Below, one piece after another: positions 8,440 through 64,000 of a stretch of 64,000 bases of DNA. The position numbers and the translations under genes are program-made. Under the pieces are notes generated by a model. It had not been told where the DNA came from, ran no database searches, and saw only the letters and a list, made by a program, of their open reading frames with translations. Every line of letters starts with the position of its first letter. Within the stretch, counting starts at the first letter, position 1. Source of the DNA: an uncultured Bacilli bacterium (GTDB lineage: Bacteria > Bacillota_I > Bacilli_A > RF39 > UBA660); contig CALVJR010000001.1 in NCBI GenBank assembly GCA_944332295.1, positions 64,585 to 128,584 on the forward strand, written 5' to 3'.

Positions 8440-8488
8440 GAGCATTGCTTCTATTTTCTTTTTAGTTTATAATAAAAGTGGTGATTCT

Positions 8489-10744: not shown

Positions 10745-10746
10745 GC

Positions 10747-10772: not shown

Positions 10773-10776
10773 AACT

Positions 10777-17009: not shown

Positions 17010-17036
17010 GGAGTCTCATAAGAGACTTCTTTCTTT
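17010..17036 (+). terminator. Rho-independent terminator
   Basis: GGAGTCTC-ATAA-GAGACTTC hairpin followed by TTTCTTT. Confidence 0.7.
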
Positions 17037-17087
17037 ACATAGCAACAAAAAAATAATATAATATATACATCACGAAAGGACGATACT

Positions 17088-17612
17088 ATGAGAAATTACT
17101 ACGAACTACTAGGTATAAGTATAAACGCAACAAAACAGGAAATAAGGGAAGCTTATCATAAGCAAGCAAGAAAATACCATCCAGATAATAATCCAGGACA
17201 AGATACCACAGATATAATGCAAGAATTAACACTAGCATACAACACATTATGCAATGTGAATAGTAGAAGACAATATGATGCTACTTTGAAGCATCAGCAC
17301 CGAACATCAACATCTTATAGCACAGGATATAGTAGTAAGAAACAGAACACTAATGATTTTTGGAGTGCTGTGGACGAAGTTATGAGAAAAAATCAAGAAG
17401 CACAAGCTAGAATGAAAAAACAACAACAAGAACGAGAAGAAAGAATGAGGAAAGCTCAAGAAGAAATGATAAGAAAATATATTAAGTTTTATAGTGATGA
17501 TATAGTATATAATATGAATAATAAACAAAAGTTTATAAAACCAGAAAATATTAATGTTACATATGATATTGAAAATGACAAATCAAAAGTAAAAATAAAG
17601 AACTTTAAATAA
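17088..17612 (+). CDS. J-domain (DnaJ-like) protein
   Basis: YYELLGISINATKQEIREAYHKQARKYHPDNNPG with an HPD motif. The rest is a charged low-complexity/coiled region with no Zn-finger or DnaJ C-domain. Confidence 0.8.
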   Translation: MRNYYELLGISINATKQEIREAYHKQARKYHPDNNPGQDTTDIMQELTLAYNTLCNVNSRRQYDATLKHQHRTSTSYSTGYSSKKQNTNDFWSAVDEVMRKNQEAQARMKKQQQEREERMRKAQEEMIRKYIKFYSDDIVYNMNNKQKFIKPENINVTYDIENDKSKVKIKNFK

Positions 17613-17618
17613 AAAAAG

Positions 17619-17657
17619 AGTGATGTAAACTGAAATAACAGTATTACATCACTTTTT
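17619..17657. terminator. Bidirectional terminator between convergent genes
   Basis: 10-bp stem AGTGATGTAA/TTACATCACT flanked by an A-run upstream and a T-run downstream. Confidence 0.8.
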
Positions 17658-19677
17658 AATTTTGTTGTATTTTTAATGTATAAGTATCACAATGATTAAG
17701 AGCATGAGCATCAATTTCGCCACTATTTACTAAAAGACCAACACCAGGACCACTAGATACATATTGACAAGAGAATTGAACATTAGGATAAGCTGCCTTT
17801 ATATTAGCACAAGTAGTAGTAGGGTTACTAGAAATTAATTCATCGTAAATATACACCATAGTAGTTTTACTACGATCACAACTAGGAGTAGGATCAGGTG
17901 TAGGGCTAGGAGTATCATTTGAACCAGAATTATCATTATCACTAGAAGAACCATTGCCAGAACCAGAATTAGAATTAGAACTATTAGAATTATCTTCTTC
18001 ACGATATTCTGTTTGTTTACCATTACTTAAAGTAACAGTAATCGTAGTCCCATCACTTACAGTACTACCAGCACTAATAGATTGTTTAATAACAGTATTT
18101 TTTTCTTTAGTACTATTTTGCATAACAAAATTATAATTCAATCCAACTTCCTCTAAAGCATCAATTGCTTCTTTCTTACTCATACCAATGATATTTGGAA
18201 CTTTTCTTTCTTCACCATCAGAAATAGTAACAATAATGCTATCTCCATTTTTAATAACATCACCTTTTTTATAAGAATAAGAAATAACTTCTCCCTGAGA
18301 AACATCTTTACTAAACTCATGTTTTTCTTCATAAGAAATACCATATTTATCAGCCCAGCTTCTAAACTCTTCTAAAGTCTTAAACTCTCTCATAACAAGA
18401 CTACCTTTAGAAATAACTACTTTAATAACTGTACCTTGTTCTACTTCATCACCTTTATGATAGTTCGCATCAATTACCTGATTTTCTTTAACAGAGTCAT
18501 CATATTGATCAGTAAATTCTAATTTTAACTTATTTTCAATGACCCATTCTGTAATTTCTACCATAGTCATTTTTTTCAAATTAGGAATCTTTATACTTTT
18601 ACCTTTACTAATAGTAAGAACTAAATGATTATCGCTATTAACGGGAACCGTATCGCCAGCTTCTATACTTTGACCAGCGACTTTACCACGTTCTATTTTC
18701 TTAGAAAAATCTCTTTCAATATCATAAGAGATACGATGCTGTTTTAAATAGAAGACTGCTTCAAACTCACTCTTACCAGTTAAGTCAATAACTTGAACAT
18801 CACTATTATCTAATTCTTCACCTAAAGAAAAAGTAAGCCTCATCTCATCACTACGCTTCATACTACCAGTTGCACTTTGTTCAATCACGGTATCTTTTGC
18901 TTTATCGGATTCAATAAATTCAACATCTACATTAGTTAAATAATTATCTTCTACATAACGAATTACACGGTCACTATCCCAACCATCCATATCTGGAACA
19001 ATAATTTCCTTATCAGGATTAGGACCTTCACTAACCGCAATTTCCAACTCTTCAATATCCTTAATCTTACTATTACTATCATAATTTTGAGAAATAATAC
19101 TATAAGCTGGGACCATATCACTATATTCATAATCTTGTACTAAAGTAACATTATTTTTTGCTGCCCAGGAAACTACTTCAGTTAGACTTTTCCCAGTAAA
19201 ATCTTCTAAATAGCCAAAAGAAGGAATAGTAATAATATTTGTTAAAGTCAAACTTCCAAAGATATTAAATACTAATAAGAAAAAACTTCCTAAAAACATA
19301 GTTCCTTTTTTTCTATTAGGGTTTGTAATACATATAGATACAAATAGAATAGAAAAAAACACTAATACAACACTACTAATTAATGTAGTAAAAAAAGAGT
19401 TATGATTTTGTCCAAAACTTAAAGTAATAAAAAAATATACCAAACTACTAAGTAGTGTCAAAAACAAGAAGAAGTTAAGAAACGGATGTTTTTTCTCTTT
19501 ACGCAAATTTACACCTCCAGGTTCTTCTTTTCTAGACTCTTTATTATGATAAGAGGTATCCTTATTTTTATCATATTTTTGATAATTATTTTTAGAACGA
19601 TTTTGATATTCATTCCTAGGATAATTAGTATTATTATTTCTTCTATAATTATTATTTTTATGATTATTCTGTCCCAT
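17656..19677 (-). CDS. Membrane protein with six PASTA-like modules and a Cys-containing C-terminal domain (no kinase or PBP domain)
   Basis: Asn/Lys-rich cytoplasmic N-terminus and 4 TM segments. Six ~65-aa modules fit the PASTA pattern (e.g. VPNIIGMSKKEAIDALEEVGLNYNFVMQ...VIKQSISAGSTV). An S/N/G linker and a 4-Cys terminal domain follow. RBS AAGGGTGG. Confidence 0.8.
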   Translation of the reverse strand: MGQNNHKNNNYRRNNNTNYPRNEYQNRSKNNYQKYDKNKDTSYHNKESRKEEPGGVNLRKEKKHPFLNFFLFLTLLSSLVYFFITLSFGQNHNSFFTTLISSVVLVFFSILFVSICITNPNRKKGTMFLGSFFLLVFNIFGSLTLTNIITIPSFGYLEDFTGKSLTEVVSWAAKNNVTLVQDYEYSDMVPAYSIISQNYDSNSKIKDIEELEIAVSEGPNPDKEIIVPDMDGWDSDRVIRYVEDNYLTNVDVEFIESDKAKDTVIEQSATGSMKRSDEMRLTFSLGEELDNSDVQVIDLTGKSEFEAVFYLKQHRISYDIERDFSKKIERGKVAGQSIEAGDTVPVNSDNHLVLTISKGKSIKIPNLKKMTMVEITEWVIENKLKLEFTDQYDDSVKENQVIDANYHKGDEVEQGTVIKVVISKGSLVMREFKTLEEFRSWADKYGISYEEKHEFSKDVSQGEVISYSYKKGDVIKNGDSIIVTISDGEERKVPNIIGMSKKEAIDALEEVGLNYNFVMQNSTKEKNTVIKQSISAGSTVSDGTTITVTLSNGKQTEYREEDNSNSSNSNSGSGNGSSSDNDNSGSNDTPSPTPDPTPSCDRSKTTMVYIYDELISSNPTTTCANIKAAYPNVQFSCQYVSSGPGVGLLVNSGEIDAHALNHCDTYTLKIQQN

Positions 19678-19806
19678 ATTACCACCCTTATAATCTTATA
19701 TACTTATTATATAATAGTAAGAAAAAAATAGAAACAAATTACAAAAACTAGACTGTAAAGTATACAAAAAAAGTAGAGTATGTTAAAATGAATTAAAGGT
19801 GAAATT

Positions 19807-21534
19807 ATGAATACTTGGATAAAAAAGAATTTTAATATCATTTTAATTATTTTTCTATTACTACAACCAATATTAGATTTAATTACTGGTATTGGAATTC
19901 ATCTATGGCATACAAATATAACAGTAGGAATCATCATAAGAATGATTTTCTTATTATTTATTTTGTATAGTGTATTATTTGTCTACAAACGAAAAAAAAA
20001 CTTATTATTTTATGGAATTTTAGCAATCTATGGATTTTTTTATATAGTAGGAATGCTTATTTATAAAAATGGAGTAGGTCTTTTTTCAGAAATACAAGGA
20101 TTATGTCGAGTATTTTATTTTCCAGTATTATTAATTAGTTTATATAGTATTAAAGAAGAAATAAAAATAAGTAAAATGACCTTAATAGTAATATTAATAA
20201 CATATTTAGTATGTATTCTAGTACCAAATTGTCTAAATTTAGGATTTAAAACGTATGAAATAACCAAAGCAGGAACATTAGGTTTCTTTAATTCTGCCAA
20301 TGAAATTAGTGGAATTATATCGATACTAACCCCGATTATGATTCTAATACTGGCAAATGAAAGAAAAATACTTTTAAGTATAATAATAGGTTCACTGTAT
20401 TTATATGTAATATTGACAATAGGTACAAAGACTCCTTTATTATCATTAGGAATCACAATATTCTTTGCTTATATATGGTTTATCCATCAAGAAATAAAAT
20501 TAAAAAGAGTAAAACGAGTAGCGATAAGTGTCGTTCTTCTAATAATATTTATAGCAGGAATGATAATAATATTACCAAAAACTAATTTTTATAAAAATAT
20601 TGAAACACATCTAGAATTTTTAGAAGTAGATAATATTACTGAAGTATTTCAAGATAAAAAACTAATAGATCATTTTATTTTCAGTGAACGTCTAACATTC
20701 CTAGAAAACAGATATAAAGATTATAGAGATGAGAGTCAGTATTTACAATTGCTTGGTATAGGGTATCTAAAAGATGGAAATGATACCAAAGCAATAGAAA
20801 TGGACTATTTTGATATTTATTATTCTCATGGCATGGTAGGTTTTATTATTTATTTTGGAATATATGGCTATTTCTTTTATCTAATTATGAAAAACAGAAA
20901 AAAACTAGACTTCACGCAGTATATGTTATATATCAGTATAGTATTAAGTGTTTTATTATCATTTATAACAGGACATATTATAACTGCTCCAGCAGTAAGT
21001 ATTCTATTAATTGTTCTACTTCTATTATTAGAAAAGCACACATATGAAAGAATACTGTTTATAGGAAATGATTTAAATATAGATAGACCATTAGAAAGCA
21101 AAATAAAGACGATAGATGTAAAAAAATATCAAATGAACTTTTTATTAGTAACAAAAAAGATAAAACAAAAAAATAAGTTACAGAGAGAAATAAAAATAAT
21201 GAAATATTCAAAATCCTCAAGTACTAATAAGATAATACAAACAATATCAAATACACTAAAACTATTTTGGTATCAAATAATAAATTATCAAATGTATGAT
21301 AAATGTTACTGCTATCAAGAATATGATGAATTAAAAAATACTTTAGGAAAAATATCATCACCTTACTATAATATTTATATAGACAAGACAAATAGAAAAA
21401 GAAAAGAATTAATGATAGGATTACCAACAGATAACATAAAACACATCATATTTAAAACAGAAAAAGATAGGAAAGAGTTTTTAAATAATAATCCAGAATT
21501 AAAAGAAAAATGTCTATTAGTAGAGACTGTATAA
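19807..21534 (+). CDS. O-antigen ligase/polymerase-like (Wzy_C-type) polytopic membrane protein with ~170-aa cytoplasmic C-terminal extension
   Basis: About 11 TM helices with a large loop, as in O-antigen ligase family proteins. Located at the head of the glycan locus. RBS AAGGTGA. Confidence 0.7.
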   Translation: MNTWIKKNFNIILIIFLLLQPILDLITGIGIHLWHTNITVGIIIRMIFLLFILYSVLFVYKRKKNLLFYGILAIYGFFYIVGMLIYKNGVGLFSEIQGLCRVFYFPVLLISLYSIKEEIKISKMTLIVILITYLVCILVPNCLNLGFKTYEITKAGTLGFFNSANEISGIISILTPIMILILANERKILLSIIIGSLYLYVILTIGTKTPLLSLGITIFFAYIWFIHQEIKLKRVKRVAISVVLLIIFIAGMIIILPKTNFYKNIETHLEFLEVDNITEVFQDKKLIDHFIFSERLTFLENRYKDYRDESQYLQLLGIGYLKDGNDTKAIEMDYFDIYYSHGMVGFIIYFGIYGYFFYLIMKNRKKLDFTQYMLYISIVLSVLLSFITGHIITAPAVSILLIVLLLLLEKHTYERILFIGNDLNIDRPLESKIKTIDVKKYQMNFLLVTKKIKQKNKLQREIKIMKYSKSSSTNKIIQTISNTLKLFWYQIINYQMYDKCYCYQEYDELKNTLGKISSPYYNIYIDKTNRKRKELMIGLPTDNIKHIIFKTEKDRKEFLNNNPELKEKCLLVETV

Positions 21535-39569: not shown

Positions 39570-41114
39570 TTGCGTACAAAAAATAGTATTTACAATATAT
39601 TATCTAATTTATTTATTGTTTTATTTCAAACAATCATGTTGTTTGTAGTTAGAACTTATTTCATAAAAATACTAGGACAAGAAAACTTAGGATTAAGTGG
39701 ACTATTTACTAATATTTTAAATATTTTATCAGTAACAGAACTAGGGATTGGAACAATAATAAGTTTTAGTCTATATAAACCACTCAGTGAAAAAGATACT
39801 GAAAAAATAAATGCCTTAATGAATTTCTATAAGAAGTTCTACTATCTAGCAGGAATAATAATTACTGTTCTAGGAATATTAATTATTCCATTTTTACCAC
39901 TATTTATAAAAAATTATAGTGGAGATAATGTATATATAATATACTTGCTATATCTAATAAATACATCATTTATTTACTTTGTTGCTTATAAAGAAATATT
40001 AATATTATCAGACCAAAAAAATTATAAACTAACAAATATTAACTTTTTCTTTATATTAGCAATGTATTTATTACAAATCTTTGTATTAGTAAAATTTAAA
40101 AGTTTTGTACTATATCTAGTAGTACAATTCATAATAACTCTATTACAAAAAATATTTATCAATATATATATTACAAAATCTTACCCAGAAGTAGATTTTA
40201 AATCAAAAAATAAATTAGAAAAAAAAACATTGAGAGAAATAAAAGATAACTTAAAAAGTCTATTCTTTAATAAAGTAGGGGAATTACTTATTTTTTGTAC
40301 GGATAATCTTCTAATATCTTCACTAGTAAATTTAGTATCTGTAGGAATTTATTCCAACTATTCCTCAATTATTACCATTACTAGAACCTTAATAAATAGC
40401 ATCTACACAGCAGTAACGGCTAGTTTTGGAGATTTTGCTTTAAAAGCTGATGGAGAAAGTAAGAAAGTAATTTTTGAAATTATGGATTTTGTACGTTTTC
40501 TATTATATGGAATTTGTACCATAGGCTTTTTCTTATTAATTAACTATTTTATTACCTTATGGATAGGTAAAGATTATGTATTTAATACAGTAATTACTTT
40601 TATTATTTGTTTAAACTTCTATCTCATGGGAACCCAGGTATCCCTAGATGTGATAAAACAAGCAATCGGATTTTTCAAAAAAGACCGTTTTATTACCTTA
40701 ATACAAGCAGTATTTAATGTAGTGTTATCTATTATCTTAGGACTAAAGTATGGAATTATTGGAATATTAATCGCAACATCAATCAGTTATATTATTTTAC
40801 CATGTTGGAATAAACCATATTTAATTTATAAATATATCTTTAATTCCTCTGTAAAAAAATATTATGTAAGAGAGTTATTGAATGCTATTGTTTTAGTAAT
40901 AATAGGTATAATATCTTATTATGCAATAGGAATGATAAATATACCAGTCTCTATTATAGGATTCATAGTAGATATTATCGTCGTAATTATGATATTTACA
41001 ATTATAATATCTATCTTCTATTTCAAAACAAAAGAGTATAAGTTTCTATTGAATTTTATCATGGAAAGAATAAAAGGAATAATGAATAGAAAGGGGAGGC
41101 CAGCAAGTGAATAA
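39570..41114 (+). CDS. Wzx-type (MOP superfamily) oligosaccharide flippase
   Basis: 514 aa with about 14 TM helices and a typical polysaccharide-biosynthesis-protein N-terminus. TTG start 7 nt after AGGTGGTGA. Confidence 0.8.
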   Translation: MRTKNSIYNILSNLFIVLFQTIMLFVVRTYFIKILGQENLGLSGLFTNILNILSVTELGIGTIISFSLYKPLSEKDTEKINALMNFYKKFYYLAGIIITVLGILIIPFLPLFIKNYSGDNVYIIYLLYLINTSFIYFVAYKEILILSDQKNYKLTNINFFFILAMYLLQIFVLVKFKSFVLYLVVQFIITLLQKIFINIYITKSYPEVDFKSKNKLEKKTLREIKDNLKSLFFNKVGELLIFCTDNLLISSLVNLVSVGIYSNYSSIITITRTLINSIYTAVTASFGDFALKADGESKKVIFEIMDFVRFLLYGICTIGFFLLINYFITLWIGKDYVFNTVITFIICLNFYLMGTQVSLDVIKQAIGFFKKDRFITLIQAVFNVVLSIILGLKYGIIGILIATSISYIILPCWNKPYLIYKYIFNSSVKKYYVRELLNAIVLVIIGIISYYAIGMINIPVSIIGFIVDIIVVIMIFTIIISIFYFKTKEYKFLLNFIMERIKGIMNRKGRPASE

Positions 41115-43785
41115 AAAAAGATTCTATTATATAATATTAACGATAATATTATGCTTTTTAGTAACTAATGTAAAAGCTATGGAATTAGAAATGAACGGAT
41201 TACAAAGGAATCTACCTACATCAAAAGGGATAGGATTAACTCCTGTAATCGAGTATCAAGCCCATGTTGGAGGCGTAGGTTGGCAAAGTTATGTAGATAC
41301 TGATGAAGTAGCAGGAACCACAGGGCAATCAAAATCATTAGAGGCAATAAGAATAAAGATTACAAGTCGAGGAGGAACATCGGGAAACATTGAATATCAA
41401 GCACATGTTGGAGGCGTAGGCTGGCAAAATTATGTGACAAATGATCATATTGCAGGAACTACGGGACAAGCAAAAGCTCTAGAAGCAGTTAAAGTTAGAC
41501 TAACCGGAGACTTAGCTAATAAATATGATATATACTACCGAGTACATGTTGGCGGAATAGGTTGGCTAGACTGGGCATCTAATGACCAGATAGCAGGTAC
41601 AGTTGGATACAGTAAAAACTTAGAAGCCATAGAAATAAAACTAGTAGAAAAAGGAGCACCTGCTCCAGGTTCAACAAAAACACCAAACATGATTAAACCA
41701 ATTACGGTAATGTATCAAGCGCATGTTGGAGGAGTAGGCTGGCAAGAGTATGTAGAAAATGGAGAAACAGGAGGAACAACTGGACAGTCTAAAGAGCTAG
41801 AAGCACTAAAAATTATGATTGCCAACCAAGGAACTGTAGCAGGAAGTATTGAATATCAAGCACATGTTGGAGGGATTGGCTGGCAAAATTATGTAGGAAC
41901 AAACCAAGTAGCAGGAACGACCGGTCAAGCTAAAGCACTAGAGGCAATAAAAATTAGACTGACTGGAGACCTAGCGAATAAATATGACATCTATTATAGA
42001 GTACATGTCGGAGAAATAGGCTGGTTAGACTGGGCATCAAATGACCAGATTGCCGGTACAGTAGGATATAGTAAAAACTTAGAAGCAATAGAAATAAAAC
42101 TGGTAGAAAAAGGACAAACAGCACCAGGCTCAACACAAACACCAAATATGATAAAGCCAATTACTATCATGTATCAGGCACATGTCGGAGGAATAGGCTG
42201 GCAAGAGTATATGGAAAATGGAGACCTAGCGGGCTCTAGTAATTATAAGAATTCTTTAGAAGCTTTAAAAATGATGGTAGCAAATCAAGGTGATATTGCA
42301 GGAAGTATTGAATATCAAGCACATGTCGGAGGAATAGGCTGGCAAAATTATGTAGGAACAAATCAAATTGCTGGAACAACAGGACAGTCAAAGTCTATAG
42401 AAGCACTAAGGGTAAGATTAACCGGAGACCTAGCGAATAAATATGACATCTATTATCGTGTCTATATGGAAAATGTTGGCTGGCTAGACTGGGCATCTAA
42501 TGATCAAATCGCAGGAAGTGTAGGTTATGGAGAAGAACTAAAAGCCTTAGAAATGAAATTAGTAGAAAAAGGAAAACCTGCTCCAGGAGATACAACAAAT
42601 CCTAATATGATAAAACCAATTACTATTATGTATCAATCATATATTGCAAAAGATGGCTGGCAAGAGTATATGGAAAATGGAGAAACAAGTGGAACAACAG
42701 GAGAAGCCAAATCTTTAGAAGCCTTAAAAATGATGGTAGCAAATCAAGGTGATGTGGCAGGAAGTATCGAATATTCTACACATGTAAGTGGACTAGGCTG
42801 GCAAAACTATGTAGGAACGAATCAAACTTCTGGAATAACAGGTCAAGGAAGAACAATAGAAGCTCTAAGAGTAAGATTAACCGGAGACTTAGCAAATAAA
42901 TATGATATCTACTATAGAGTACATGTTGGAGGGCTTGGTTGGATGACGTGGGCATCCAATGACCAAATTGCAGGTACTAGTGGAGCAGCAAAAAGTATTG
43001 AAGCAATAGAAATGCAACTAGTAGAAAAAGGCAATCCTGCACCAGAAAATATAGGAAATGCAACAGATAAACCATATCTAGAAGCATACTGGGTAGTCGA
43101 TGAAGAAGGAAAAAAATATTACTACGACCTATACGGAAACCTAGTAGCTGGCGGGGGATATTTAATAGGAGATACTATGCATTATTTTGGCCCTACAGGA
43201 GTATATTTAGGAACAGAGAACTTACTAGTAATCGATGTATCAGCACATCAGAAAAAAATAGATTGGGAACAAGTAGCAAGAAGTGGTATCTATGGTGTAA
43301 TCATAAGAATATCTGCAGGCTGTGATTATGAAGATAGTGAATTAAAGAATAACATTGAGGGTGTAAAAAAATATAATATTCCATATGGAATTTATATCTA
43401 TAGTTATGCAGAAAACTATGCCGAAGGAGTATTATATGGACAATTCACTCAAAGAATAATAAATAAATATCAAATGAATCCTACTCTAGGAATTTACCTA
43501 GATTTAGAAAAAAATGGAATTACAGAATACATGGGACCAAACGAATATACACAAGTAGTACAAGGATTTATGTCTGTATTACCACATGCAGAAATATATA
43601 CTTATACAAATTATGCAAATAATCAATTAAATACACCATATCTTAGATCATATATTACCTGGATTGCTCATTATGCAGAAAGTTGTGGATATACAGGAAG
43701 TTATAAGATGTGGCAATACACAAGTGATGGAAGTCTTCCAGGAATAAATGGAAGAGTAGATATGAATATTTTATATAGCATATAA
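41107..43785 (+). CDS. Secreted muramidase: 12 ChW repeats + cell-wall-binding repeats + GH25 lysozyme domain
   Basis: Signal peptide and 12 copies of the ChW pattern (Y[QR][AV]HV.G.GW...V.....AGT.G..K.[LI]EA[IL]). YYYDLYGNLVAGG-type repeats follow. The GH25 core reads VIDVSAHQKKIDWEQV...GVIIRI...YGIYIYSYA. GTG start 7 nt after GGGGAGG, overlapping the wzx 3' end. Confidence 0.88.
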   Translation: MNKKRFYYIILTIILCFLVTNVKAMELEMNGLQRNLPTSKGIGLTPVIEYQAHVGGVGWQSYVDTDEVAGTTGQSKSLEAIRIKITSRGGTSGNIEYQAHVGGVGWQNYVTNDHIAGTTGQAKALEAVKVRLTGDLANKYDIYYRVHVGGIGWLDWASNDQIAGTVGYSKNLEAIEIKLVEKGAPAPGSTKTPNMIKPITVMYQAHVGGVGWQEYVENGETGGTTGQSKELEALKIMIANQGTVAGSIEYQAHVGGIGWQNYVGTNQVAGTTGQAKALEAIKIRLTGDLANKYDIYYRVHVGEIGWLDWASNDQIAGTVGYSKNLEAIEIKLVEKGQTAPGSTQTPNMIKPITIMYQAHVGGIGWQEYMENGDLAGSSNYKNSLEALKMMVANQGDIAGSIEYQAHVGGIGWQNYVGTNQIAGTTGQSKSIEALRVRLTGDLANKYDIYYRVYMENVGWLDWASNDQIAGSVGYGEELKALEMKLVEKGKPAPGDTTNPNMIKPITIMYQSYIAKDGWQEYMENGETSGTTGEAKSLEALKMMVANQGDVAGSIEYSTHVSGLGWQNYVGTNQTSGITGQGRTIEALRVRLTGDLANKYDIYYRVHVGGLGWMTWASNDQIAGTSGAAKSIEAIEMQLVEKGNPAPENIGNATDKPYLEAYWVVDEEGKKYYYDLYGNLVAGGGYLIGDTMHYFGPTGVYLGTENLLVIDVSAHQKKIDWEQVARSGIYGVIIRISAGCDYEDSELKNNIEGVKKYNIPYGIYIYSYAENYAEGVLYGQFTQRIINKYQMNPTLGIYLDLEKNGITEYMGPNEYTQVVQGFMSVLPHAEIYTYTNYANNQLNTPYLRSYITWIAHYAESCGYTGSYKMWQYTSDGSLPGINGRVDMNILYSI
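41248..43023 (+). repeat. Tandem coding repeats: 4 super-units (~480 nt) each of 3 ChW modules
   Basis: Long stretches recur nearly verbatim, e.g. GGAGACCTAGCGAATAAATATGACATCTATTAT at about 41965 and 42425, and LTGDLANKYDIYYRV occurs four times. Confidence 0.85.
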
Positions 43786-49995: not shown

Positions 49996-50439
49996 ATGAA
50001 AAATGAAAAATATGAATTAATTGCAAAAGACCATCAAGCACCCAATCCCAGACTAAAAAATGCAATCATTGCATTTATTGCTGGTGGCTTAATAGGTCTT
50101 TCAGGAGAAGGTATTATTGAATTACTTTGTTATTATACTCATATATCAAGAAGTAATGCAGGAACAATTATGATTGTAATTCTAATATTTGTAGCATCTC
50201 TTTCAACAGCACTCGGCTTCTTTGATAAACTGGTAACAAAATTTAAATGTGGTCTTTTAATTCCAATAACAGGCTTTGCACATTCCATGACAAGTGCAGC
50301 TTTAGATTATAGAAAAGAAGGACCAATTTATGGATTAGGTGCGAATATTTTTAAACTAGCAGGTTCTGTTATATTATATGGTATTATTGCTGCATGGTTT
50401 TTTGGAATGATTCGCTTTCTTTTAGGAGGTAAGATATGA
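49996..50439 (+). CDS. spoVAC: Stage V sporulation protein AC
   Basis: ...PNPRLKNAIIAFIAGGLIGLSGEG... with four TM segments is the SpoVAC pattern. ATG 49996 follows GGTGA. Confidence 0.9.
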   Translation: MKNEKYELIAKDHQAPNPRLKNAIIAFIAGGLIGLSGEGIIELLCYYTHISRSNAGTIMIVILIFVASLSTALGFFDKLVTKFKCGLLIPITGFAHSMTSAALDYRKEGPIYGLGANIFKLAGSVILYGIIAAWFFGMIRFLLGGKI

Positions 50440-51428
50440 CATTTGAATATAATGATGTATATGTAAAAGATACTGCAACCATTGCAGGACCATATGAGAA
50501 AAAAGGACCCTTAAAAAAATATTTTGATAAAACATTCGAGGATTTATATTTTAAAGAAACATCCTGGGAAAAAGCAGAGATAAAAACGGTAAAAGAAAGT
50601 CTAAAACTATTACACAAAAAAGTAGGGTTAAAAAGAAAAGAAGTTGATGTGATATTAGGAGGAGACTTACTAAATCAGATTAGTGCGACAACCTATGGAG
50701 CCTATGATTTTTCTAAATGTTTTCTAGGATTATATGGTGCTTGTTCTACCTCTGTTGAGGGGATGATTTTAGGAAGTTGTTTGATTGACTCCAAAAAAGT
50801 AAAAAATGCAATTGTTACCATATCTTCTCATAATATGGCAGCAGAGAAGCAATTTAGAAATCCAACTGAATATGGAGCACCAAAACCTTTAAGTGCAACT
50901 TTCACAGCTACTGGAAGTGCATCTATTTTATTAACTAAAGAAAAAACGGATGTGAAGGTAGAATCCTCAACAATAGGACAAATTATAGATTTTGGGCAAA
51001 ACGATCCAAATGACATGGGAAAAGTAATGGCACCAGCAGCAATAGACACAATCAAAAGACATTTACAAGATTTAAATAGAACACCAGATTATTATGATTT
51101 AATTGTAACAGGAGACTTAGGTCTCTATGGAAAAGAAATATTAAAGGACTATATGTTAGAAGAATATAATCTAGATTTATCTAAAAATTACAATGATTGT
51201 GGAGTTATGTTATATGACTTAAAAAAGCAAGAAGAATGTCTTGCCGGAGGGAGTGGACCAGTATGTAGTGCTTTAGTTACATTTGGATATATCTATCATG
51301 AAATGAAAAAGAAAAATTTAAAGAAAGTATTAATCGTCGCAACAGGAGCACTATTTTCTCCAACCATGGTGTATCAAAAAGAAAATATTTATTCAATTGC
51401 CAATGCAATTAGTTTGGAGGTAGTATAA
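50436..51428 (+). CDS. spoVAD: Stage V sporulation protein AD
   Basis: Thiolase-like SpoVAD pattern (IAGPYEKKGPLKKYFDKTFEDLYF..., GACSTSVEGM). Overlaps the spoVAC stop. Confidence 0.92.
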   Translation: MTFEYNDVYVKDTATIAGPYEKKGPLKKYFDKTFEDLYFKETSWEKAEIKTVKESLKLLHKKVGLKRKEVDVILGGDLLNQISATTYGAYDFSKCFLGLYGACSTSVEGMILGSCLIDSKKVKNAIVTISSHNMAAEKQFRNPTEYGAPKPLSATFTATGSASILLTKEKTDVKVESSTIGQIIDFGQNDPNDMGKVMAPAAIDTIKRHLQDLNRTPDYYDLIVTGDLGLYGKEILKDYMLEEYNLDLSKNYNDCGVMLYDLKKQEECLAGGSGPVCSALVTFGYIYHEMKKKNLKKVLIVATGALFSPTMVYQKENIYSIANAISLEVV

Positions 51429-54367: not shown

Positions 54368-54454
54368 GCCTGCGTGGCGGAATTGGTAGACGCGCTGGAC
54401 TCAAAATCCAGTGTTAGCGATAACGTGTCGGTTCGAGTCCGACCGCAGGCACCA
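54368..54454 (+). tRNA. tRNA-Leu (anticodon CAA), type II with long variable arm, CCA encoded
   Basis: Acceptor GCCTGCG/CGCAGGC; anticodon arm CTGGA-CTCAAAA-TCCAG; 16-nt variable arm; T arm GTCGG-TTCGAGT-CCGAC; 3' ACCA. Confidence 0.95.
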
Positions 54455-58138: not shown

Positions 58139-58526
58139 AATATGTCTAGATTTATCTAAAATAGTTATAGTAAATAAAAGAACTATATGTGCAAAAATAG
58201 CATTATGAAAAAATATGCGAATTTAGTATTTTCTAAAACAACTAGAACTATCATAGCAATTACTACCAAATAATGAGACTTGAAGCAATTTATAATTCTA
58301 AAAAAAGAACGTCTAAAAGACAAATATGATACTAAAAAATAGAGCCATACATAAATCAAAAACAAAAAATATCTAGACTTAGAACGAGAAACTCAAGTAA
58401 ATAAAACAAAGTTAGTAAATAAAAGTCTTATTTTAGAAATAGATGGAATATTAGAAGAAGAAAAGAGTCAAAATAAAAGAGAAGAGGAACATTCACGTAA
58501 AAATATGTAAACTAATAAAATACCTC

Positions 58527-58555
58527 TTGTCAATTGTAAAAAAACAAGATAAAAT
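58527..58555 (+). promoter_or_regulatory. Promoter of the SipW-associated operon
   Basis: TTGTCA (58527-58532), 17-nt spacer, TAAAAT (58550-58555), about 70 nt upstream of the first gene. Confidence 0.6.
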
Positions 58556-58624
58556 AAATATGACATAGTAGGAAAGGGAGCAATGTGATGTACTAGAAAA
58601 TAAAAAAACAAGTGGTGATAAAAA

Positions 58625-59329
58625 ATGGCAATTAATACAGTAAACGTAGAAGCGGAACGAATCTACAAGAAAAAAGTTTTCTCAAAATTAGTAAAAATCG
58701 CGTTCTTACTATTAATTATATTTTTATCTATTGTTTATTTATTTTTGTATATCGTCTACGATGGTGGAAGATTTACCGTATCTTTAGATAAAAATATGTC
58801 CAATAGAAAGAATGTATATTTATCAGAAGATGGAAAAAAGAAATCAAAAACCAGGCAGTTATCAGCAGACACCATAGATTATATGGATAACATTTCAATA
58901 AAGTGGCTTCCTGAAAATATTGATACCGAAGCAACAGGTGCTCATAATGGAGATAACTACATAGCTTATACATTTTATGTTGTAAATGCTGGAGAAGAAC
59001 AAGTACATTATTGGTATGAAGTAGATATAGATGATACAATAAAGAATGTAGATGAAGCTATTCGCATTATGATTTATAGAAATGGAAAACCTACGGTCTA
59101 TGCCAAAAAGAGTAAGGTTACCAATAAAAAGGAACCTGGTACAAAGAAATTTGTATCAAAAGACATAGCTGTTTTGGAACAAAGAAAAAACTTGAAACCA
59201 GGCAGCAAAGATCGCTTTACTATTGTTGTATGGATAGAAGGCGATGATCCAGAATGTAAAAATGACCTACTAGGTGGGGAAATTAAAATGCATATGGATA
59301 TCACAGAAGAACATATAGCAAAGAAATAA
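58625..59329 (+). CDS. Membrane-anchored secreted protein, paralog of the downstream putative fibre subunit
   Basis: 234 aa with an N-terminal anchor (IAFLLLIIFLSIVYLFLYIV) and a beta-rich domain ending ...RFTIVVWIEGDDPECKNDLLGGEIKMHMDI. The next protein shares this motif. Confidence 0.75.
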   Translation: MAINTVNVEAERIYKKKVFSKLVKIAFLLLIIFLSIVYLFLYIVYDGGRFTVSLDKNMSNRKNVYLSEDGKKKSKTRQLSADTIDYMDNISIKWLPENIDTEATGAHNGDNYIAYTFYVVNAGEEQVHYWYEVDIDDTIKNVDEAIRIMIYRNGKPTVYAKKSKVTNKKEPGTKKFVSKDIAVLEQRKNLKPGSKDRFTIVVWIEGDDPECKNDLLGGEIKMHMDITEEHIAKK

Positions 59330-59344
59330 TAAGGAGTGAGAAAA

Positions 59345-60367
59345 ATGAAAAAAGAAGAAAAGCAAAAAAAGAAAAAAAGAAAAATATTGTTATCATTAAT
59401 TATGATATTATTTGTAGGAGTTGTGTTAACAGCCTCAACTTATACATGGTTCACTGCCAATAGAACAGTTACTGTTGACCAACTAGATGTTAATGTTTCT
59501 ACTTCTACAGGTTTACAGATTTCAGTAGATGCTACAAACTGGAAAACATTAATTACAAAAGATGATATTTTAGGAGCACAAGCAAATTACACAAATGCAG
59601 TAAACCAAGTACCAGCTGGACAAACAACACCAGTATCATCAATCGGAGAAGTAGACCCTGCTACAGGTTTTATAAAAATGTTCAAAGGTGAACTTGTTAA
59701 TGATGAAGAAGAAGGTCATTTAGTATTATCTGCAGAACAATCAACAGAAACAAATGGTACAACAGGTGACTTTATTGCATTTGACTTATTCTTCCAAACA
59801 AATGAAGCAATGGAAATTCGTCTAACTTCTAATTCAAATGTAGTTGCTGGAGCAACAGATACATCAATTGAAAATGCTGCACGTGTTGCATTTATACCAC
59901 AAGGTCATGCAGAAGCAGGTACTGCACCAGCTGAAATTCAAGCATTAAAAGCAGCTGACTCAACTGAAGTAAAAATCTGGGAACCAAACTTCGATGTTCA
60001 TACAGCATCAGCAGTAAATAATGCTTGGGATAGTTATCAATTAAGAACACAACAAACAGGAGCAACAAGATTGAAATATTATGGAGTAAAAGCAGATATT
60101 CCTACTGGAGCAAAAATTCCTGTTAACTCTCAAGATCCAACATATTTTGCAGATATGGATACAACATTAGCAGATAGATTACTTTCAACACCAGAATCAG
60201 GAATTCCAACAGATGATTACTTAGAAGTATTAAGCTTAGAAGCTGGAGTTACAAAAGTTAGAATTTATATGTGGGTAGAAGGACAAGATGTAGACTGTGA
60301 AAACTATGCATCAGGTGGAGATTTAGCTTTCAACTTACAATTTACTTCATTAGAAAATGCAGGATAA
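59345..60367 (+). CDS. Secreted T/A/Q/N-rich protein with SipW-cognate-like signal peptide (putative TasA-like fibre subunit)
   Basis: Lys-rich n-region, h-region ILLSLIMILFVGVVL, then TASTYTWFTANRTVTVDQLDV. C-terminus ...VRIYMWVEGQDVDCENYASGGDLAFNLQF. ATG 59345 lies 8 nt after AAGGAG. Confidence 0.75.
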   Translation: MKKEEKQKKKKRKILLSLIMILFVGVVLTASTYTWFTANRTVTVDQLDVNVSTSTGLQISVDATNWKTLITKDDILGAQANYTNAVNQVPAGQTTPVSSIGEVDPATGFIKMFKGELVNDEEEGHLVLSAEQSTETNGTTGDFIAFDLFFQTNEAMEIRLTSNSNVVAGATDTSIENAARVAFIPQGHAEAGTAPAEIQALKAADSTEVKIWEPNFDVHTASAVNNAWDSYQLRTQQTGATRLKYYGVKADIPTGAKIPVNSQDPTYFADMDTTLADRLLSTPESGIPTDDYLEVLSLEAGVTKVRIYMWVEGQDVDCENYASGGDLAFNLQFTSLENAG

Positions 60368-60381
60368 AAAATAAAACAACA

Positions 60382-60403
60382 AGGCCTTCTAAGAAGGTCT
60401 TTT
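60382..60403 (+). terminator. Weak intrinsic terminator/attenuator after the putative subunit gene
   Basis: AGGCCTT-CTAAG-AAGGTCT (7 bp with one G-U pair) followed by TTTATAAT. Confidence 0.45.
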
Positions 60404-60421
60404 ATAATATTAGGAGGGTTT

Positions 60422-60523
60422 ATGGATAATACAAAAGAAATATTAGAATTGTACCAACAAATCGAAAAACATATTCGTTTTCTAGAAAGCAATATAATAA
60501 GTGAGGAAGAGCAGGATGACTAA
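60422..60523 (+). CDS. 33-aa acidic helical micro-protein (MDNTKEILELYQQIEKHIRFLESNIISEEEQDD)
   Basis: Not in the ORF track. AGGAGGG lies 3-4 nt upstream of the ATG (short spacing). Its stop overlaps the next start (ATGACTAA), suggesting translational coupling. Confidence 0.45.
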   Translation: MDNTKEILELYQQIEKHIRFLESNIISEEEQDD

Positions 60524-62171
60524 TGAATTACAAGAACAAATAAAAAAAGAAATAGAAGTAAATGAAAATCATATTAATAACTTCCCATTAGAAACAGAAA
60601 CGGGAACAAAAAAGATGAAAGAGAAATTTCGTCGTAATGCAGTAAAAGAACGAAATGCTTATATAGAAAAAGAGTTAACTAAATTCCAAGAATATCAAAG
60701 AAATACATATCAAGTACTAGATAACTATGTACAATCTAATAAACCAGAAGATAAGAATAACCAATATAACGAAGAACAACAAAAACTAGAAGAATTGTTA
60801 AAAATACTCCCTTTAACAAATGATAAGATATCATTAGAAATGAAATTAGGATATGCTCATATCTTTTATGAATTATCAGAAGAAGCAAGTGCATCTTTAA
60901 AAGTAATCAATTCATGTATTTTAGATTTTATAGAAAAAATGAAAAGTGCACAAATTGAATTAACAATAAATAATTTCAACTATAGTCCATTTACATTATC
61001 ATATATGAGCGCATTATTAAAGAACAAAGATCAAGAAAACTTTGATGATCTTATGCAAGAAAGCTTTAAAAACATCTACTGGGAATGTCCTGAAATAATC
61101 ATGCATATAAAAAGAAATTTATTATATATAGTAAAGAAAAATTATCAAAAATTAAAAGAATATAGCCACACCCTAGGTACCAAAGTAGTGGCAGAAAAAA
61201 ACTTAACCATAAATACAGTTGAAAATGTATATCAAAATACAAGAAGCGAGCTAGAAATAAAAAAAGCAAAAGATGAATATAATAATCTTTACTTATTTTT
61301 AAATAAAAATAAAAATATAGATGATTATATAGAAGGAGCACCTTTACGAAATAAAAGTTTTAATCACTTAGTAATAAAAGAAACATATCAAGACTTAACA
61401 CCAGCGGAAAAAGAAGTTTTTGACAGAGAAATAATTAATTTAGGAAACCATTTACAAGTATTAAAAGAATATTATCGTTATGAAAGTATTGTAAAAGATC
61501 TAATTGAAAGATTTAAGAAAAAAGAAGAGTCAAAAGCAAAGTATATAACGAAAGAAAAAGAAATAGAAACAGAAGAAAAAGCAAGAGAAAAATTGTATAA
61601 GGACTATCAAAAAGCAAATGGTATTGGTCTATTTGCAAGAAAAAATGAAACAAAACAAGCGGAAATCAAAGTAAAAATGAAAGAACAAATCAATAAATTA
61701 GATAAACTATATCAAGAACTAGAAGACTTAGAAATTGATATTAAAATTGCAGAAAATCTAACAGAAGGAAGTAGCATATATGATGCTTTAATTACCAGTT
61801 TAAGTTCTTATACTTATATTGAAAAAGTAATGATAGAAAAATTTAAAGATATTGATGTAGATTTTCACTTAGCTAATTATGTAAAAGAGTATTTAGACTT
61901 TATTTATAATCCAAATGCAGATTTCTTAAGAAAGATAACAGTATTACTAGATTATGATATAGCAGAAGTAATATCAGAAAAATATGAATTATTAGGAATT
62001 CATCTGGATAAAGAAGAAATAAGCCCTGATTCGATTGATAGTGAAATACAAACAGTAAATGTTGTAATACTAGTAAATAATATTAAGGCATCAAATATGT
62101 CCCTTGATCAAATGAAATTAATCTGTGACATCAATAAGATTGACTATAAAATAGAAGAAGAAATTTTATAA
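60516..62171 (+). CDS. 551-aa cytoplasmic, largely helical/coiled-coil protein of unknown function
   Basis: No TM or signal peptide; long Glu/Lys heptad-like stretches. ATG 60516 lies 6 nt after GAGGAAG; the tracked GTG 60501 is an alternative. Confidence 0.75.
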   Translation: MTNELQEQIKKEIEVNENHINNFPLETETGTKKMKEKFRRNAVKERNAYIEKELTKFQEYQRNTYQVLDNYVQSNKPEDKNNQYNEEQQKLEELLKILPLTNDKISLEMKLGYAHIFYELSEEASASLKVINSCILDFIEKMKSAQIELTINNFNYSPFTLSYMSALLKNKDQENFDDLMQESFKNIYWECPEIIMHIKRNLLYIVKKNYQKLKEYSHTLGTKVVAEKNLTINTVENVYQNTRSELEIKKAKDEYNNLYLFLNKNKNIDDYIEGAPLRNKSFNHLVIKETYQDLTPAEKEVFDREIINLGNHLQVLKEYYRYESIVKDLIERFKKKEESKAKYITKEKEIETEEKAREKLYKDYQKANGIGLFARKNETKQAEIKVKMKEQINKLDKLYQELEDLEIDIKIAENLTEGSSIYDALITSLSSYTYIEKVMIEKFKDIDVDFHLANYVKEYLDFIYNPNADFLRKITVLLDYDIAEVISEKYELLGIHLDKEEISPDSIDSEIQTVNVVILVNNIKASNMSLDQMKLICDINKIDYKIEEEIL

Positions 62172-62271
62172 AAGAAACTATTTTAAATAAGAAATGATTT
62201 TAAAAAATAGTTTTTTTTTCTGTGATATGTTATAATAAATTATAAAAGAATAAAGATGGTGTGGTGGAGAA

Positions 62272-63528
62272 ATGAAAACAGCAAAAAAAGTAGTAAAATC
62301 AATTGGTTATTTATTTGTTGGAATGCTCGTTGCTCTATGCATATATACATTTATCGCAACAGATATCTTTAAAAAAGATTATGCCAATGTTTTTGGATAT
62401 ACGTATTTCGTAGTAGCAACTGGCTCTATGTCCGGAACAATTGAAGTAAATGATGTAGTAATTGTCAAACTAGGACAAGATGTAAATGTCAACGATGTAA
62501 TTACTTATCAGGGAGAACAAGGCGAGTTTATTACACATAGAGTAGTAAAAAAGATAGGAAATCAAATTATTACCCAAGGTGATGTAAATAATACAGAAGA
62601 TGATCCTATTACAAAAGATGATGTAGTAGGAACAGTAAAATTAGTAATATCTCCAAGCTCAGTATTAAAATTAATTGCAGTTTTACTGATTGTCTTTATA
62701 CTATTAGCTTTTCTTAATTTTGATAAAATCTTTAAGAAATTTGTAATTGGAGAAGACACAAATACGAAAAAGACAGTAAAAGGCAGTGTACCAGAAGAAT
62801 TATTTACAACAACACCAGTCAAAAAAGAAGAAAAGTCAACCGGAAACACAGTAAATATTCCAATCAGTGAAGTCTTACAAATTCAAAAAGACCAAGAACT
62901 AGCAGAGGTAGAAGATGAAATAGAAGTTCTAGAAGTAGAAGATATTATTGATATTGATGATAATAATATTGTAAGAAAAGAAAGAAATAGTGCCAAAGAG
63001 AAAGAAAAAGAACTTCTAGAGCAAGTCCTAAACTTACTAAGAATTAAAAATGATACGTTAACAATTACTAAAATGAACAAAAAATGGTTAACGAAATATC
63101 AATATGTCTATAAATTAGCGCAAATTTTGTCAATGGGAGATACGAAAGAATTAGAAGAGACAATAATGCATCCTACATTTAAAGAAATTTATGACTATGA
63201 TTTAGAACGTGCAGGACTATATGAGAATCTAAGAAATAAAATCTATGAAATGCCAATCTATGTATTCTTAAGAATCTTAACATTTGCTATTCTTTATAAC
63301 GATCCAACATTTTTTGATGGAGTATATAAAATATTAAAATACAAAGTTCAAATTGATAAAGATAGTCATTTTAAAGAAATAAAGAAAAATGACACTTATG
63401 CTAAAAAACAAATACGTTCTCTAATAGCATTTATGCAAAAAATATCAATTAAATTTGATAATAAAAAAGTATTTGAACTAGAACGTATAGAACGATATGT
63501 AAAACTAAAAAATTATGTAAATCATTAA
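62272..63528 (+). CDS. sipW: Archaeal/ER-type signal peptidase I (S26B, SipW-like) with ~270-aa C-terminal extension
   Basis: TM1, catalytic Ser context VVATGSMSGTIEVNDVVIV, His context EFITHRVV, QGDVNNTEDDP, and a second TM (VLKLIAVLLIVFILLAFL). An acidic linker and a helical domain not found in typical ~190-aa SipW proteins follow. Confidence 0.85.
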   Translation: MKTAKKVVKSIGYLFVGMLVALCIYTFIATDIFKKDYANVFGYTYFVVATGSMSGTIEVNDVVIVKLGQDVNVNDVITYQGEQGEFITHRVVKKIGNQIITQGDVNNTEDDPITKDDVVGTVKLVISPSSVLKLIAVLLIVFILLAFLNFDKIFKKFVIGEDTNTKKTVKGSVPEELFTTTPVKKEEKSTGNTVNIPISEVLQIQKDQELAEVEDEIEVLEVEDIIDIDDNNIVRKERNSAKEKEKELLEQVLNLLRIKNDTLTITKMNKKWLTKYQYVYKLAQILSMGDTKELEETIMHPTFKEIYDYDLERAGLYENLRNKIYEMPIYVFLRILTFAILYNDPTFFDGVYKILKYKVQIDKDSHFKEIKKNDTYAKKQIRSLIAFMQKISIKFDNKKVFELERIERYVKLKNYVNH

Positions 63529-63543
63529 AAGGAGGGAAATGCG

Positions 63544-64000
63544 GTGAAGAAGTTAGAATTAAGAAATTCTGCAATCATAAAAATATCATGTGTCTTCGCC
63601 ATAGTAATTGCTAGTTTTGCGATTATTAATCTCTTCACTGCAACAACAACTCTAAGTAATATTGCCGAAGTCTGGGATGGAGTAGAAGTAGCTACTTCAT
63701 TTTCTGCTGGTAATGGAACGAAAGAAAATCCCTACCAAATAGCAAGTGGAAGTGAACTTGCCTATTTAAAAAAGATAGTAGAAGAAAATCTATTCACAGA
63801 CTTAAAAGAAAAATATTTTGTATTAGCAAATGATATTGACCTAGGAGGTCATGTTTGGCAAGGAATTGGAACAAACAACATAGAAAACCAATTTACAGGA
63901 CATATAGATGGACAAGGATATTCTATTAAAAATTTTAAAATAGAAACACCAACAGTAATAAATAATGTAGATTATTATAGTTTTTTTAACACAGTAGCTG
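63544..64000 (+). CDS. Large surface protein, N-terminal part (3' end beyond window)
   Basis: GTG 63544 lies 7 nt after AAGGAGGG and the frame stays open to the window end. N-terminal anchor IKISCVFAIVIASFAIINLF. Then GTKENPYQIASGSELAYLKKIV...YFVLANDIDLGG..W.GIG....FTGHIDGQGYSIKNF, typical of the start of large beta-helix/GLUG-type surface proteins. Confidence 0.7.
   Translation, partial: MKKLELRNSAIIKISCVFAIVIASFAIINLFTATTTLSNIAEVWDGVEVATSFSAGNGTKENPYQIASGSELAYLKKIVEENLFTDLKEKYFVLANDIDLGGHVWQGIGTNNIENQFTGHIDGQGYSIKNFKIETPTVINNVDYYSFFNTVA

Follow-up and report, generated by a model that had tools for sequence, protein, structure and literature searches.

A conserved gene cluster of uncultured gut Bacillota with its own SEC11-like signal peptidase, a candidate surface-polymer and adhesin-display system

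The DNA analysed here is a 64-kb stretch, hereafter the window, of contig CALVJR010000001.1 from an uncultured Bacilli bacterium of the RF39 lineage (assembly GCA_944332295.1). At the 3′ end of the window, from bp 58527 to 64000, where G+C is 25–34% throughout, the listing of open reading frames (ORFs) contains six co-directional ORFs, all on the + strand, which we call A, B, c, D, E, and F (Table 1). The original prediction, made from the sequence alone, described them as a SipW-type signal peptidase operon with paralogous secreted subunits and as a possible TasA-like fibre assembly system, and all six are present as it described. Hydropathy shows a single membrane segment at the N-terminus of A, of B, and of F, a pair in E (residues 6–34 and 121–156), and none in c or D. 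The start of D lies inside the end of c, with an overlap of 8 nt. The gene calls for a contig that comes from the same organism give products of 234, 340, 33, 551, 418, and 2,694 aa for A to F, respectively.

Table 1. Features of the cluster and its surroundings (window positions).
Feature	Position	Strand	Description
σA-like promoter	58527–58555	+	TTGTCA-17-TAAAAT; 10/12 consensus positions; conserved in 12 relatives
Conserved leader (5′ untranslated region)	58556–58624	+	Invariant GACATAGTAGGAAAGGGAG, Shine–Dalgarno (SD)-like element, true ribosome-binding site GGTGAT; alignment A5
Gene A	58625–59329	+	234 aa; N-terminal membrane helix 16–48 and ~185-aa β-sandwich ectodomain; candidate anchor/nucleator
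Gene B	59345–60367	+	340 aa from ATG, 343 aa if GTG 59336 is used; Lys-rich n-region, h-region, ASTYT↓WFTAN motif, acidic Thr/Ala-rich two-part β-rich body; candidate major subunit
Intrinsic-terminator-like hairpin	60383–60406	+	GGCCTTC-TAA-GAAGGTC, then TTTTATA; directly 3′ of the B stop codon
Gene c	60422–60523	+	33 aa, net charge −7; one amphipathic helix and acidic tail; translationally coupled to D
Gene D	60516–62171	+	551 aa from ATG, net charge −19; cytoplasmic, acidic, predicted helical
Gene E	62272–63528	+	418 aa; S26B, SipW/SEC11-like signal peptidase: first membrane segment, catalytic domain, second membrane segment, C-terminal domain ~157–418
Gene F, 5′ part	63544–64000	+	GTG start 63544 after AGGAGG; membrane helix, ..NLFTATTTLS.., WDGVxVATSFSxGNGTxxNPY domain, YGGxN β-helix-like repeats; continues beyond the window
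Wall and sporulation genes	5719–21534, 41107–43785, 50436–51428 (SpoVAD)		Window annotation
tRNA-Leu(CAA)	54368–54454		Followed, to 58087, by genes for WDGH, Zn-dependent phospholipase C (PLC)-like, MazE/MazF, and HAD proteins
GGDEF protein	2710–4749		679 aa; solute-binding and GGDEF (diguanylate cyclase) domains

For comparison, 80 related loci were fetched, many of them on incomplete contigs. All six genes are conserved at the protein level in these loci, the micro-ORF c included, and since they are also recognised by gene callers, we take them to be real genes and not chance ORFs. A tblastn search over the 80 loci found A in 72, D in 73, and E in 65, and when all ORFs of the loci were clustered, the D cluster was present in 70 loci and a c homologue occupied the same position in 65 of 81. 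The strict order A<B<D<E holds in 50 loci, and in about 45 a giant ORF equivalent to F starts within ~20 nt of the E stop codon. The gene set that the original prediction took for an operon is, thus, conserved as a neighbourhood. In the 50 collinear loci, the median identities to the window proteins are 76% for A, 54% for B, 39% for D, and 53% for E, so that A is the best conserved of these four and D is the fastest-evolving. Some relatives have a second gene order, giant-c-D-E...B, without A, in which the giant protein encoded upstream of c-D-E is homologous to F. The giant protein, c, D, and the peptidase are constant in both orders; F, c, D, and E are the most constant core in both architectures, and F had been given too little weight in the original prediction.

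In a scan of one genome per species, a relative of B was found in 247 genomes, and at least as many species-level genomes have the cluster. These are recorded as uncultured Bacilli, Mycoplasmatota, Tenericutes, Mollicutes, “Mycoplasma sp. CAG:877”, “Clostridium sp. CAG:609”, and Candidatus Faecenecus, and the samples from which they were obtained are of human, ruminant, rabbit, and chicken gut. In many relatives, the cluster lies downstream of scpA-scpB and the spoVA genes, with variable genes in between; therefore, its position points to vertical inheritance. Conservation of the cluster extends over an order of gut bacteria that are walled and uncultured (the evidence for the wall is given below) and, as judged by the family searches described in the following paragraphs, no cluster protein falls in a described family, apart from the peptidase domain. 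Our literature searches found no paper describing the cluster or its families.

The signals upstream of A deserve comment, given that in this AT-rich stretch promoter-like sites are not enriched (32 sites, compared with a mean of 36.8 in shuffled sequence). The raw count of sites is, thus, no evidence for the promoter that the original prediction had placed at this position. We accept it because the −35 and −10 hexamers, their spacing, and the ~130 nt to the ATG are kept in 12 relatives, while the DNA further upstream is unalignable (alignment A5). The SD-like sequence AGGAAAGGGAG is invariant in the 12 relatives, about 50 nt 5′ of the start codon of A; it could be an mRNA-stabilising element or a regulator site. 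The leader neither matches an Rfam family nor folds stably (z-score 0.2), and on these grounds a riboswitch or another structured leader was rejected. In the same 12 relatives (window 58480–58624), the sequence ACGTAAA..TGTAAAC is near-invariant 5′ of the −35 hexamer.

A second signal lies directly downstream of B. A hairpin of −5 kcal/mol or stronger followed by a T-run is found 3′ of B in 58 of 65 loci, and its stems vary by clade: GGCCTTC/GAAGGTC, AAGCCTTC/GAAGGCTT, and GAGAGAA/TTCTCTC. As judged from the sequences, A-B is probably set apart from c-D-E-F by a conserved terminator or attenuator at this place, and together with the promoter it would fit an excess of A and B over the products of the downstream genes. 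A terminator also follows the major-subunit gene in the sipW-bsaA operon of Clostridium perfringens, where both a short, abundant transcript and a read-through transcript into the accessory genes are made (PMC7395162).

The only member of the cluster with recognisable relatives of known function is the peptidase, E. When scored with the SipW equivalog model NF046067, E obtains 44.6 bits (E 1e-11) against a cut-off of 190 bits; hence, it is a divergent member of S26B and not a SipW orthologue. TIGR02228 was not among the model matches of the window E in the NCBIfam scan. Peptidases of the LepB type use a Ser-Lys dyad, and those of the S26B type use Ser...His(...Asp) motifs (GSM / HR / GDxN..D). 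A profile of 27 E homologues matches human SEC11A and SEC11C (E 1.4e-7), and the alignment pairs the motifs of the catalytic Ser (GSM/GSM), His (THR/VHR), and Asp (GDvNnveD/GDNNEVDD) of E and SEC11; the catalytic domain is alike in these motifs to archaeal signal peptidase I (TIGR02228). Residues S52, H89, and D110 are invariant among the 27 homologues. E, thus, carries the S26B catalytic motifs, flanked by an N-terminal anchor and a second membrane segment, and the claim that it is a peptidase of the endoplasmic reticulum (ER)/archaeal type is borne out by the motif alignment and the three invariant residues.

The second membrane segment of E is followed by a charged linker of variable length and then by a well-conserved region of ~200 residues, with the motifs NKKWLxKYQYVYKL ... 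FKEIYDYDLE ... PIYVFLRILT ... FFDGIYKILKYK ... FDNKxVFELEKIE. An added C-terminal region of ~270 aa had been claimed; it is present, at ~260 aa, and conserved, and a hidden Markov model (HMM) built on it matches no proteins other than the long peptidases of this cluster. The membrane topology predicts that this tail is cytoplasmic. In contrast to SEC11 and SipW, E is a bacterial enzyme that stands alone, and it combines a second membrane helix with a large C-terminal domain that is seen in neither of them. Our observations support the idea that E is a dedicated SipW/SEC11-type enzyme. In one comparison locus, L076 (7129–8382), a 417-aa ORF of the peptidase cluster has a C-terminal half that is not the usual cytoplasmic domain and resembles the secreted “k43” proteins (..FNAFAWFIYITKA..); the ORF results either from a fusion or from an artefact of assembly or frameshift.

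B has 1,665 close matches in a collection of 5.8 billion proteins, all unnamed and none with a Pfam domain, and its profile gathers 3,673 clusters at 50% identity with E ≤ 1e-3, 412 of them with E ≤ 1e-30. Neither A nor B has a Pfam or NCBIfam match beyond noise, and no PDB sequence match was obtained with B or with the profiles of A and B. The N-terminus of the B family consists of a basic n-region (median net charge +6), about 21 uncharged residues, and then a motif, [ST]-T-Y-A-W-F-T-[AS]-N-x-T-V-x-[IV], which is present in 119 of 143 full-length representatives sharing at most 50% mutual identity. In these 119 sequences, position −1 is Ala in 118, position −3 is Thr or Ser in 118, and position +2 (P2′) is Phe in all. 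With small residues at −3 and −1, the motif obeys the −3/−1 rule, and Phe falls at P2′. No other part of B is as well conserved as the motif region. A second motif, W[VIL]EG[QED]DxD[CT], is found near the C-terminus of 133 of 149 representatives.

The AlphaFold2 (AF2) monomer model of B is β-rich, with a predicted local distance difference test score (pLDDT) of 80.4 and a predicted template-modelling score (pTM) of 0.80. Residues 28–40, which contain the motif, fall below pLDDT 50 and are the only long stretch that the monomer model leaves unplaced. That the best-conserved segment of B should be unplaced in a monomer is what one would expect if it were a strand with its partner in another subunit. 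In addition, B is acidic, Thr/Ala-rich, and faster-evolving than A (54% vs 76% median identity), as exposed major subunits are. Sortase-dependent Gram-positive pili have a pilin-specific sortase and LPXTG signals on their subunits. Here, no sortase was found among the conserved genes of the cluster, and both A and B end without an LPXTG motif and without a C-terminal helix. Residues 54–74 of B (window 59504–59566), STGLQISVDATNWKTLITKDD, resemble residues 221–241 of TasA, SIKLQFSFEATQWNGLTIKKD, with 10 of 21 positions identical; the hhalign score (E 0.09, probability 0.6%) is not significant.

A, with 2,613 homologues in the same collection, all of them again unnamed and without a Pfam domain, is related to B. 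The two share a C-terminal hairpin (BLASTP E 3e-5), which hhalign recovers over the same 38 columns (E 7e-4); positions 169–328 of the B HMM align to residues 52–226 of A (16.7 bits, E 1e-3), and the HMM of each family matches most members of the other. Thus, the subunits were rightly called paralogous; the paralogy is remote and joins A to the C-terminal half of B. The AF2 model of A (pLDDT 83.3) has as its best PDB fold match the archaeal bundling pilin AbpA, 7ueg (E 2.2e-4, probability 0.98), and its top 21 matches also include other donor-strand pilins, namely variants of FimA, the pilin domain of PapG, and the subunit of the archaeal thread. AbpA is a homologue of TasA (PMC9245690). The segments following the membrane helix, G-x-F-T-[VI]-x-[LV]-D in A and [FL]-[FLI]-T-[AG] in F, are similar by eye to the W-F-T-A of B.

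The remaining proteins have no such relatives. The micro-ORF product c has a core motif, LLxLYxxIxxHIxYLxxxII, followed by an acidic tail, and gave only noise in Pfam and NCBIfam; D is rich in Glu, Lys, and Leu and has no match in Pfam, NCBIfam, PDB, or PADLOC. F, which is 2,833 aa in an abundant relative, consists mostly of YGGxN-type repeats behind a conserved N-terminus made up of a membrane helix, [FL][FLI]T[AG], and the sequence WDGVxVATSFSxGNGTxxNPY; Pfam gives only a sub-threshold Peptidase_M26_N-like match. A defence-system reading of the cluster was rejected, as PADLOC had no match for A, B, D, or E of the window.

To what extent does this cluster resemble the tapA-sipW-tasA operon of Bacillus subtilis, with which the original prediction compared it? 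TasA fibres assemble by donor-strand exchange, and TapA is their anchor or nucleator. In both systems, the genes for the secreted substrates lie next to that of a dedicated peptidase of the ER/archaeal type; the cleavage site shows small residues at −3 and −1 and Phe at P2′; and a conserved minor protein, here A, accompanies a more variable major one, here B, both β-rich. The likeness between the TasA site, T-W-A↓A-F, and that of B, T/S-Y-A↓W-F, was judged by inspection, and PMC10269814 states that, in TasA, the Phe at P2′ goes together with inefficient LepB cleavage and a need for SipW. The SipW-cognate likeness noticed in the signal peptide, therefore, stands as regards these residues; it fails as regards the corresponding model, TIGR04088. 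The differences are also considerable. B is larger, at 340 aa and in two parts, with an unmatched fold; A keeps its N-terminal membrane helix; and the peptidase here has a ~260-aa domain predicted to be cytoplasmic. F has no counterpart in B. subtilis, nor do D, the micro-ORF, and the extended peptidase, as had been stated, so that three cytoplasmic parts are without a described counterpart. On the other hand, the statement that no TapA-like gene is visible is questionable, as A, which is membrane-anchored, the best conserved of the proteins compared, and related to B, is a candidate functional analogue.

Two other systems are instructive. In the sipW-bsaABCRSD operon of C. perfringens, SipW is needed for BsaA, a secreted protein that polymerises by itself and independently of sortase. 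In contrast to that operon, the cluster described here has no BsaA model match, its peptidase gene is downstream, and it has no two-component regulator; the cytoplasmic c/D module and the giant adhesin candidate are found only here. The archaeal AbpA/AbpB pili (7UEG) are brought in by the top structural match of the A model, which is weak; the thread subunit Saci_0406 (7PNB) is also among its matches, and the cannula protein CanA forms a related donor-strand filament. AbpA/AbpB assembly is free of chaperones and is proposed to start from AbpB, a membrane-proximal minor protein. The archaeal loci lack a dedicated peptidase (PMC9245690), in contrast to the present locus, which is bacterial and belongs to a walled lineage of Bacillota. 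By analogy, we infer that the cluster works like tapA-sipW-tasA and sipW-bsaA without belonging to those families.

We propose, as the likeliest reading, that the cluster encodes a surface-polymer and adhesin-display system that relies on its own signal peptidase of the ER/archaeal type; its chances we judge to be evenly balanced. A dedicated ER-type peptidase, an acidic, faster-evolving B presumably produced in surplus, an invariant N-terminal segment without a place in the monomer model, an anchored paralogue A, and a giant F all fit a surface polymer processed by a peptidase. The process might run as follows. From the σA-type promoter, A and B would be transcribed, and the terminator after B would allow partial read-through to c-D-E-F, leaving A and B in excess. 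B, and probably F, would be exported by Sec, each having a strongly basic n-region and a hydrophobic helix. E would then cut B between Ala(−1) and Trp(+1) of TYA↓WFT[AS]N. It is tempting to propose that the freed WFTANxTVxV acts as a donor strand that enters the β-sandwich of the neighbouring subunit, so that B would polymerise in the manner of the TasA, AbpA, and thread filaments. A would stay in the membrane and anchor or nucleate the polymer, in a role like that of TapA or AbpB, and F, through the related [FL]-T-[AG] segment after its helix, might be displayed on the polymer or joined to it as an adhesin. More speculatively, the cytoplasmic domain of E, together with D and c, may form a module that holds or selects the basic N-termini of the precursors and couples export to cleavage.

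Several observations weigh against this proposal. The copy of B in the window has T-Y-T↓W-F, i.e., Thr and not Ala at −1, and an alternative cleavage site, TAS↓T, is possible from the sequence. Membership of the TasA/camelysin family failed: PF12389 and NF046066 have no match for A or B at E ≤ 1, while the TasA control scores 513.8 bits on NF046066, a score that also validates our B. subtilis TasA query. TIGR04088, a 34-position HMM with a cut-off of 19 bits, has no match at E ≤ 10 for the N-termini of A, B, or F, and TasA reaches 38 bits; on TIGR04087 (TapA), the N-terminus of B scores 13.4 bits against a cut-off of 80; and for TIGR04090 (BsaA), no match is listed for the N-termini of A, B, or F. 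Alignment by hhalign of the A and B profiles with TasA gives probabilities of 0.1% and 0.6%, respectively. The structural comparison with the jelly-roll fold of TasA and AbpA had a mixed outcome. A Foldseek search of the PDB with the B model yields a best E of 0.08 with a TM-score below 0.2, and TasA is outside the top 50, while A matches AbpA weakly, the superposition being poor (TM 0.25–0.30, rmsd 12.9 Å). Since the TM-scores of the A model are 0.25–0.40 overall and the sandwich domains of glycosidases score similarly, the match of A to AbpA is a lead and not proof. Finally, it is from sequence features that we infer that E cleaves B, that B polymerises, and what A, F, c, and D do, and the roles given to c, D, and the tail of E are speculative guesses. 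All in all, what the original prediction observed is confirmed, and its interpretation is partly supported, with membership of the TasA family as the part that failed.

Alternatively, the giant F might be the real cargo, and the cluster might serve to export, process, and anchor a giant β-helical adhesin, with c, D, and the E tail as a chaperone or targeting module and with A and B as a wall-spanning scaffold or coat, such as a sheath or an S-layer-like structure with A as the stalk, and no donor-strand fibre at all. The association of the giant protein with c, D, and the peptidase is the most constant one, being kept in both gene orders, one of them without A, and c and D are translationally coupled. 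Moreover, B is acidic, Thr/Ala-rich, and apparently in excess, like S-layer proteins, and its fold is unlike that of any known pilin. However, the strict cleavage and strand motif is on B and not on F, the fold of A leans towards donor-strand pilins, a lattice held by a 185-residue ectodomain would sit inside the wall of a walled bacterium, and the Pfam scan detects no S-layer anchoring domain (SLH, CWB2) in A or B. That F is the real cargo seems to us possible, if rather doubtful.

The nearness of sporulation genes raises the question of whether the product is a component of the spore coat, the exosporium, or a spore appendage, and TasA itself is said to have been described first as a spore-associated protein. 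The spoVA genes are only 7 kb upstream of the cluster, and the spoVA-scpAB neighbourhood recurs in relatives; furthermore, a passage in PMC11844507 describes endospore appendages of Firmicutes as built of self-assembling, β-rich subunits. Nevertheless, the conserved promoter is σA-like, unlike a promoter for a sporulation σ factor; the linkage to spoVA runs through the housekeeping genes scpAB and is broken by variable islets; and the Pfam and NCBIfam scans give no likeness of the cluster proteins to known coat or Ena proteins. A role in the spore is, in our view, quite improbable. The simplest explanation would be that E is the housekeeping type I signal peptidase and that its neighbours are unrelated secreted and cytoplasmic proteins. 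Consistent with this, and as a further point against a dedicated enzyme, a tblastn search with SipS of B. subtilis finds no LepB-type gene in the 64-kb window, which is a part of the genome. Against it stand the strict gene order with translational coupling in 50 loci, the extra domain of E, which is conserved and confined to this context, and the presence in some relatives of three to five extra short paralogues of archaeal-type peptidases in an adjacent module, which argue for specialised enzymes. A housekeeping role of E among unrelated neighbours strikes us as very improbable.

Returning to the surface polymer with a displayed adhesin, the presence of a wall makes a fibre that crosses it plausible. 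The window encodes an LtaS-like sulfatase-family protein, a LytR-CpsA-Psr (LCP) protein with PASTA, a five-PASTA protein, and a GH25 lysozyme with 12 ChW repeats, besides a 1,324-aa glucosaminidase/Ig-like surface protein and an O-antigen-ligase-like protein. With these wall genes and SpoVAD, the organism is walled and probably spore-forming. A wall-less Mollicute with a membrane coat, as the names of some records suggest, was rejected on account of the LCP, PASTA, LtaS-like, glucosaminidase, GH25-ChW, and spoVA genes. One may imagine a surface organelle of RF39-type Bacillota in which A is the base, B, cleaved at A↓WF by E and polymerised by strand donation, is the shaft that crosses the wall, F is joined to it by its N-terminal strand, and the E tail, D, and c form a gating platform that selects the precursors and times their cleavage; we offer this fuller picture tentatively and consider it unlikely in its entirety. 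We know of no such cytoplasmic control layer for fibres of the TasA, AbpA, or chaperone-usher type.

Like known systems, the cluster appears to join a dedicated SipW-type peptidase to a subunit of the polymerising kind; it is built almost wholly from undescribed families and widespread in uncultured gut Bacillota. The size of the B family noted above is striking for a family without a relative in Pfam, NCBIfam, or the PDB. Should B prove to be the main subunit of a fibre bearing a giant adhesin, this cluster would be the foremost candidate for the means by which these bacteria attach to mucus, food particles, or other cells, and B would be an obvious antigen and a marker for metaproteomics. 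A SEC11-like peptidase with a cytoplasmic domain and two cytoplasmic partners would, in turn, give a first indication that control of a type I signal peptidase can come from the cytoplasmic side.

The DNA between scpB and the cluster had been described as a tRNA-linked accessory islet, and a tRNA-Leu gene is indeed found beside the locus, followed by the genes given in Table 1. The content of this interval differs among relatives, which supports the description, and the tRNA-Leu/WDGH/PLC-like/MazEF/HAD stretch is regarded as a local insertion.

Some relatives have additional genes at the cluster. In a CAG:877-like clade (locus L012, 6820–8591; also L016, L021, L023, L026–L028, L038, L081, and L082), two extra genes are present between D and E, one encoding ~130 aa and the other a Ser/Thr/Asp-rich protein of ~420–470 aa with a C-terminal hydrophobic segment; neither has a Pfam match, nor have the extra genes k61 and k72 of relatives. 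In other relatives, a second, larger module lies beside the cluster or is interleaved with it (L010, 136–8130; L070, 7216–17508; also L033, L056, L067, L069, L071, L073, L074, and L076–L080). Three to five of its products are short signal peptidases of the archaeal type, which do pass TIGR02228 (88.8 bits), and several others are secreted proteins of ~200 aa with TYx↓xF-type sites. It also encodes a P-loop protein of the membrane (GISGTGKT), for which PADLOC gives a match to the candidate PDC-M26A (E 4e-32), a protein with DUF2357 (E 2e-11), and two proteins that lack annotation. This second module was not found in the window.

Typical low-GC genes of the cluster also occur under the names Muribaculaceae, Acidaminococcus fermentans, Bacteroidaceae, and Lachnospiraceae (L037, L038, L052, L054, L066, L069, L072, L073, and L077–L079). 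These loci are probably mis-binned or mislabelled contigs of metagenome-assembled genomes and not true occurrences in those groups. Near the other end of the window, and not linked to the cluster, the protein with solute-binding and GGDEF domains could be a cyclic di-GMP input to surface or biofilm functions.

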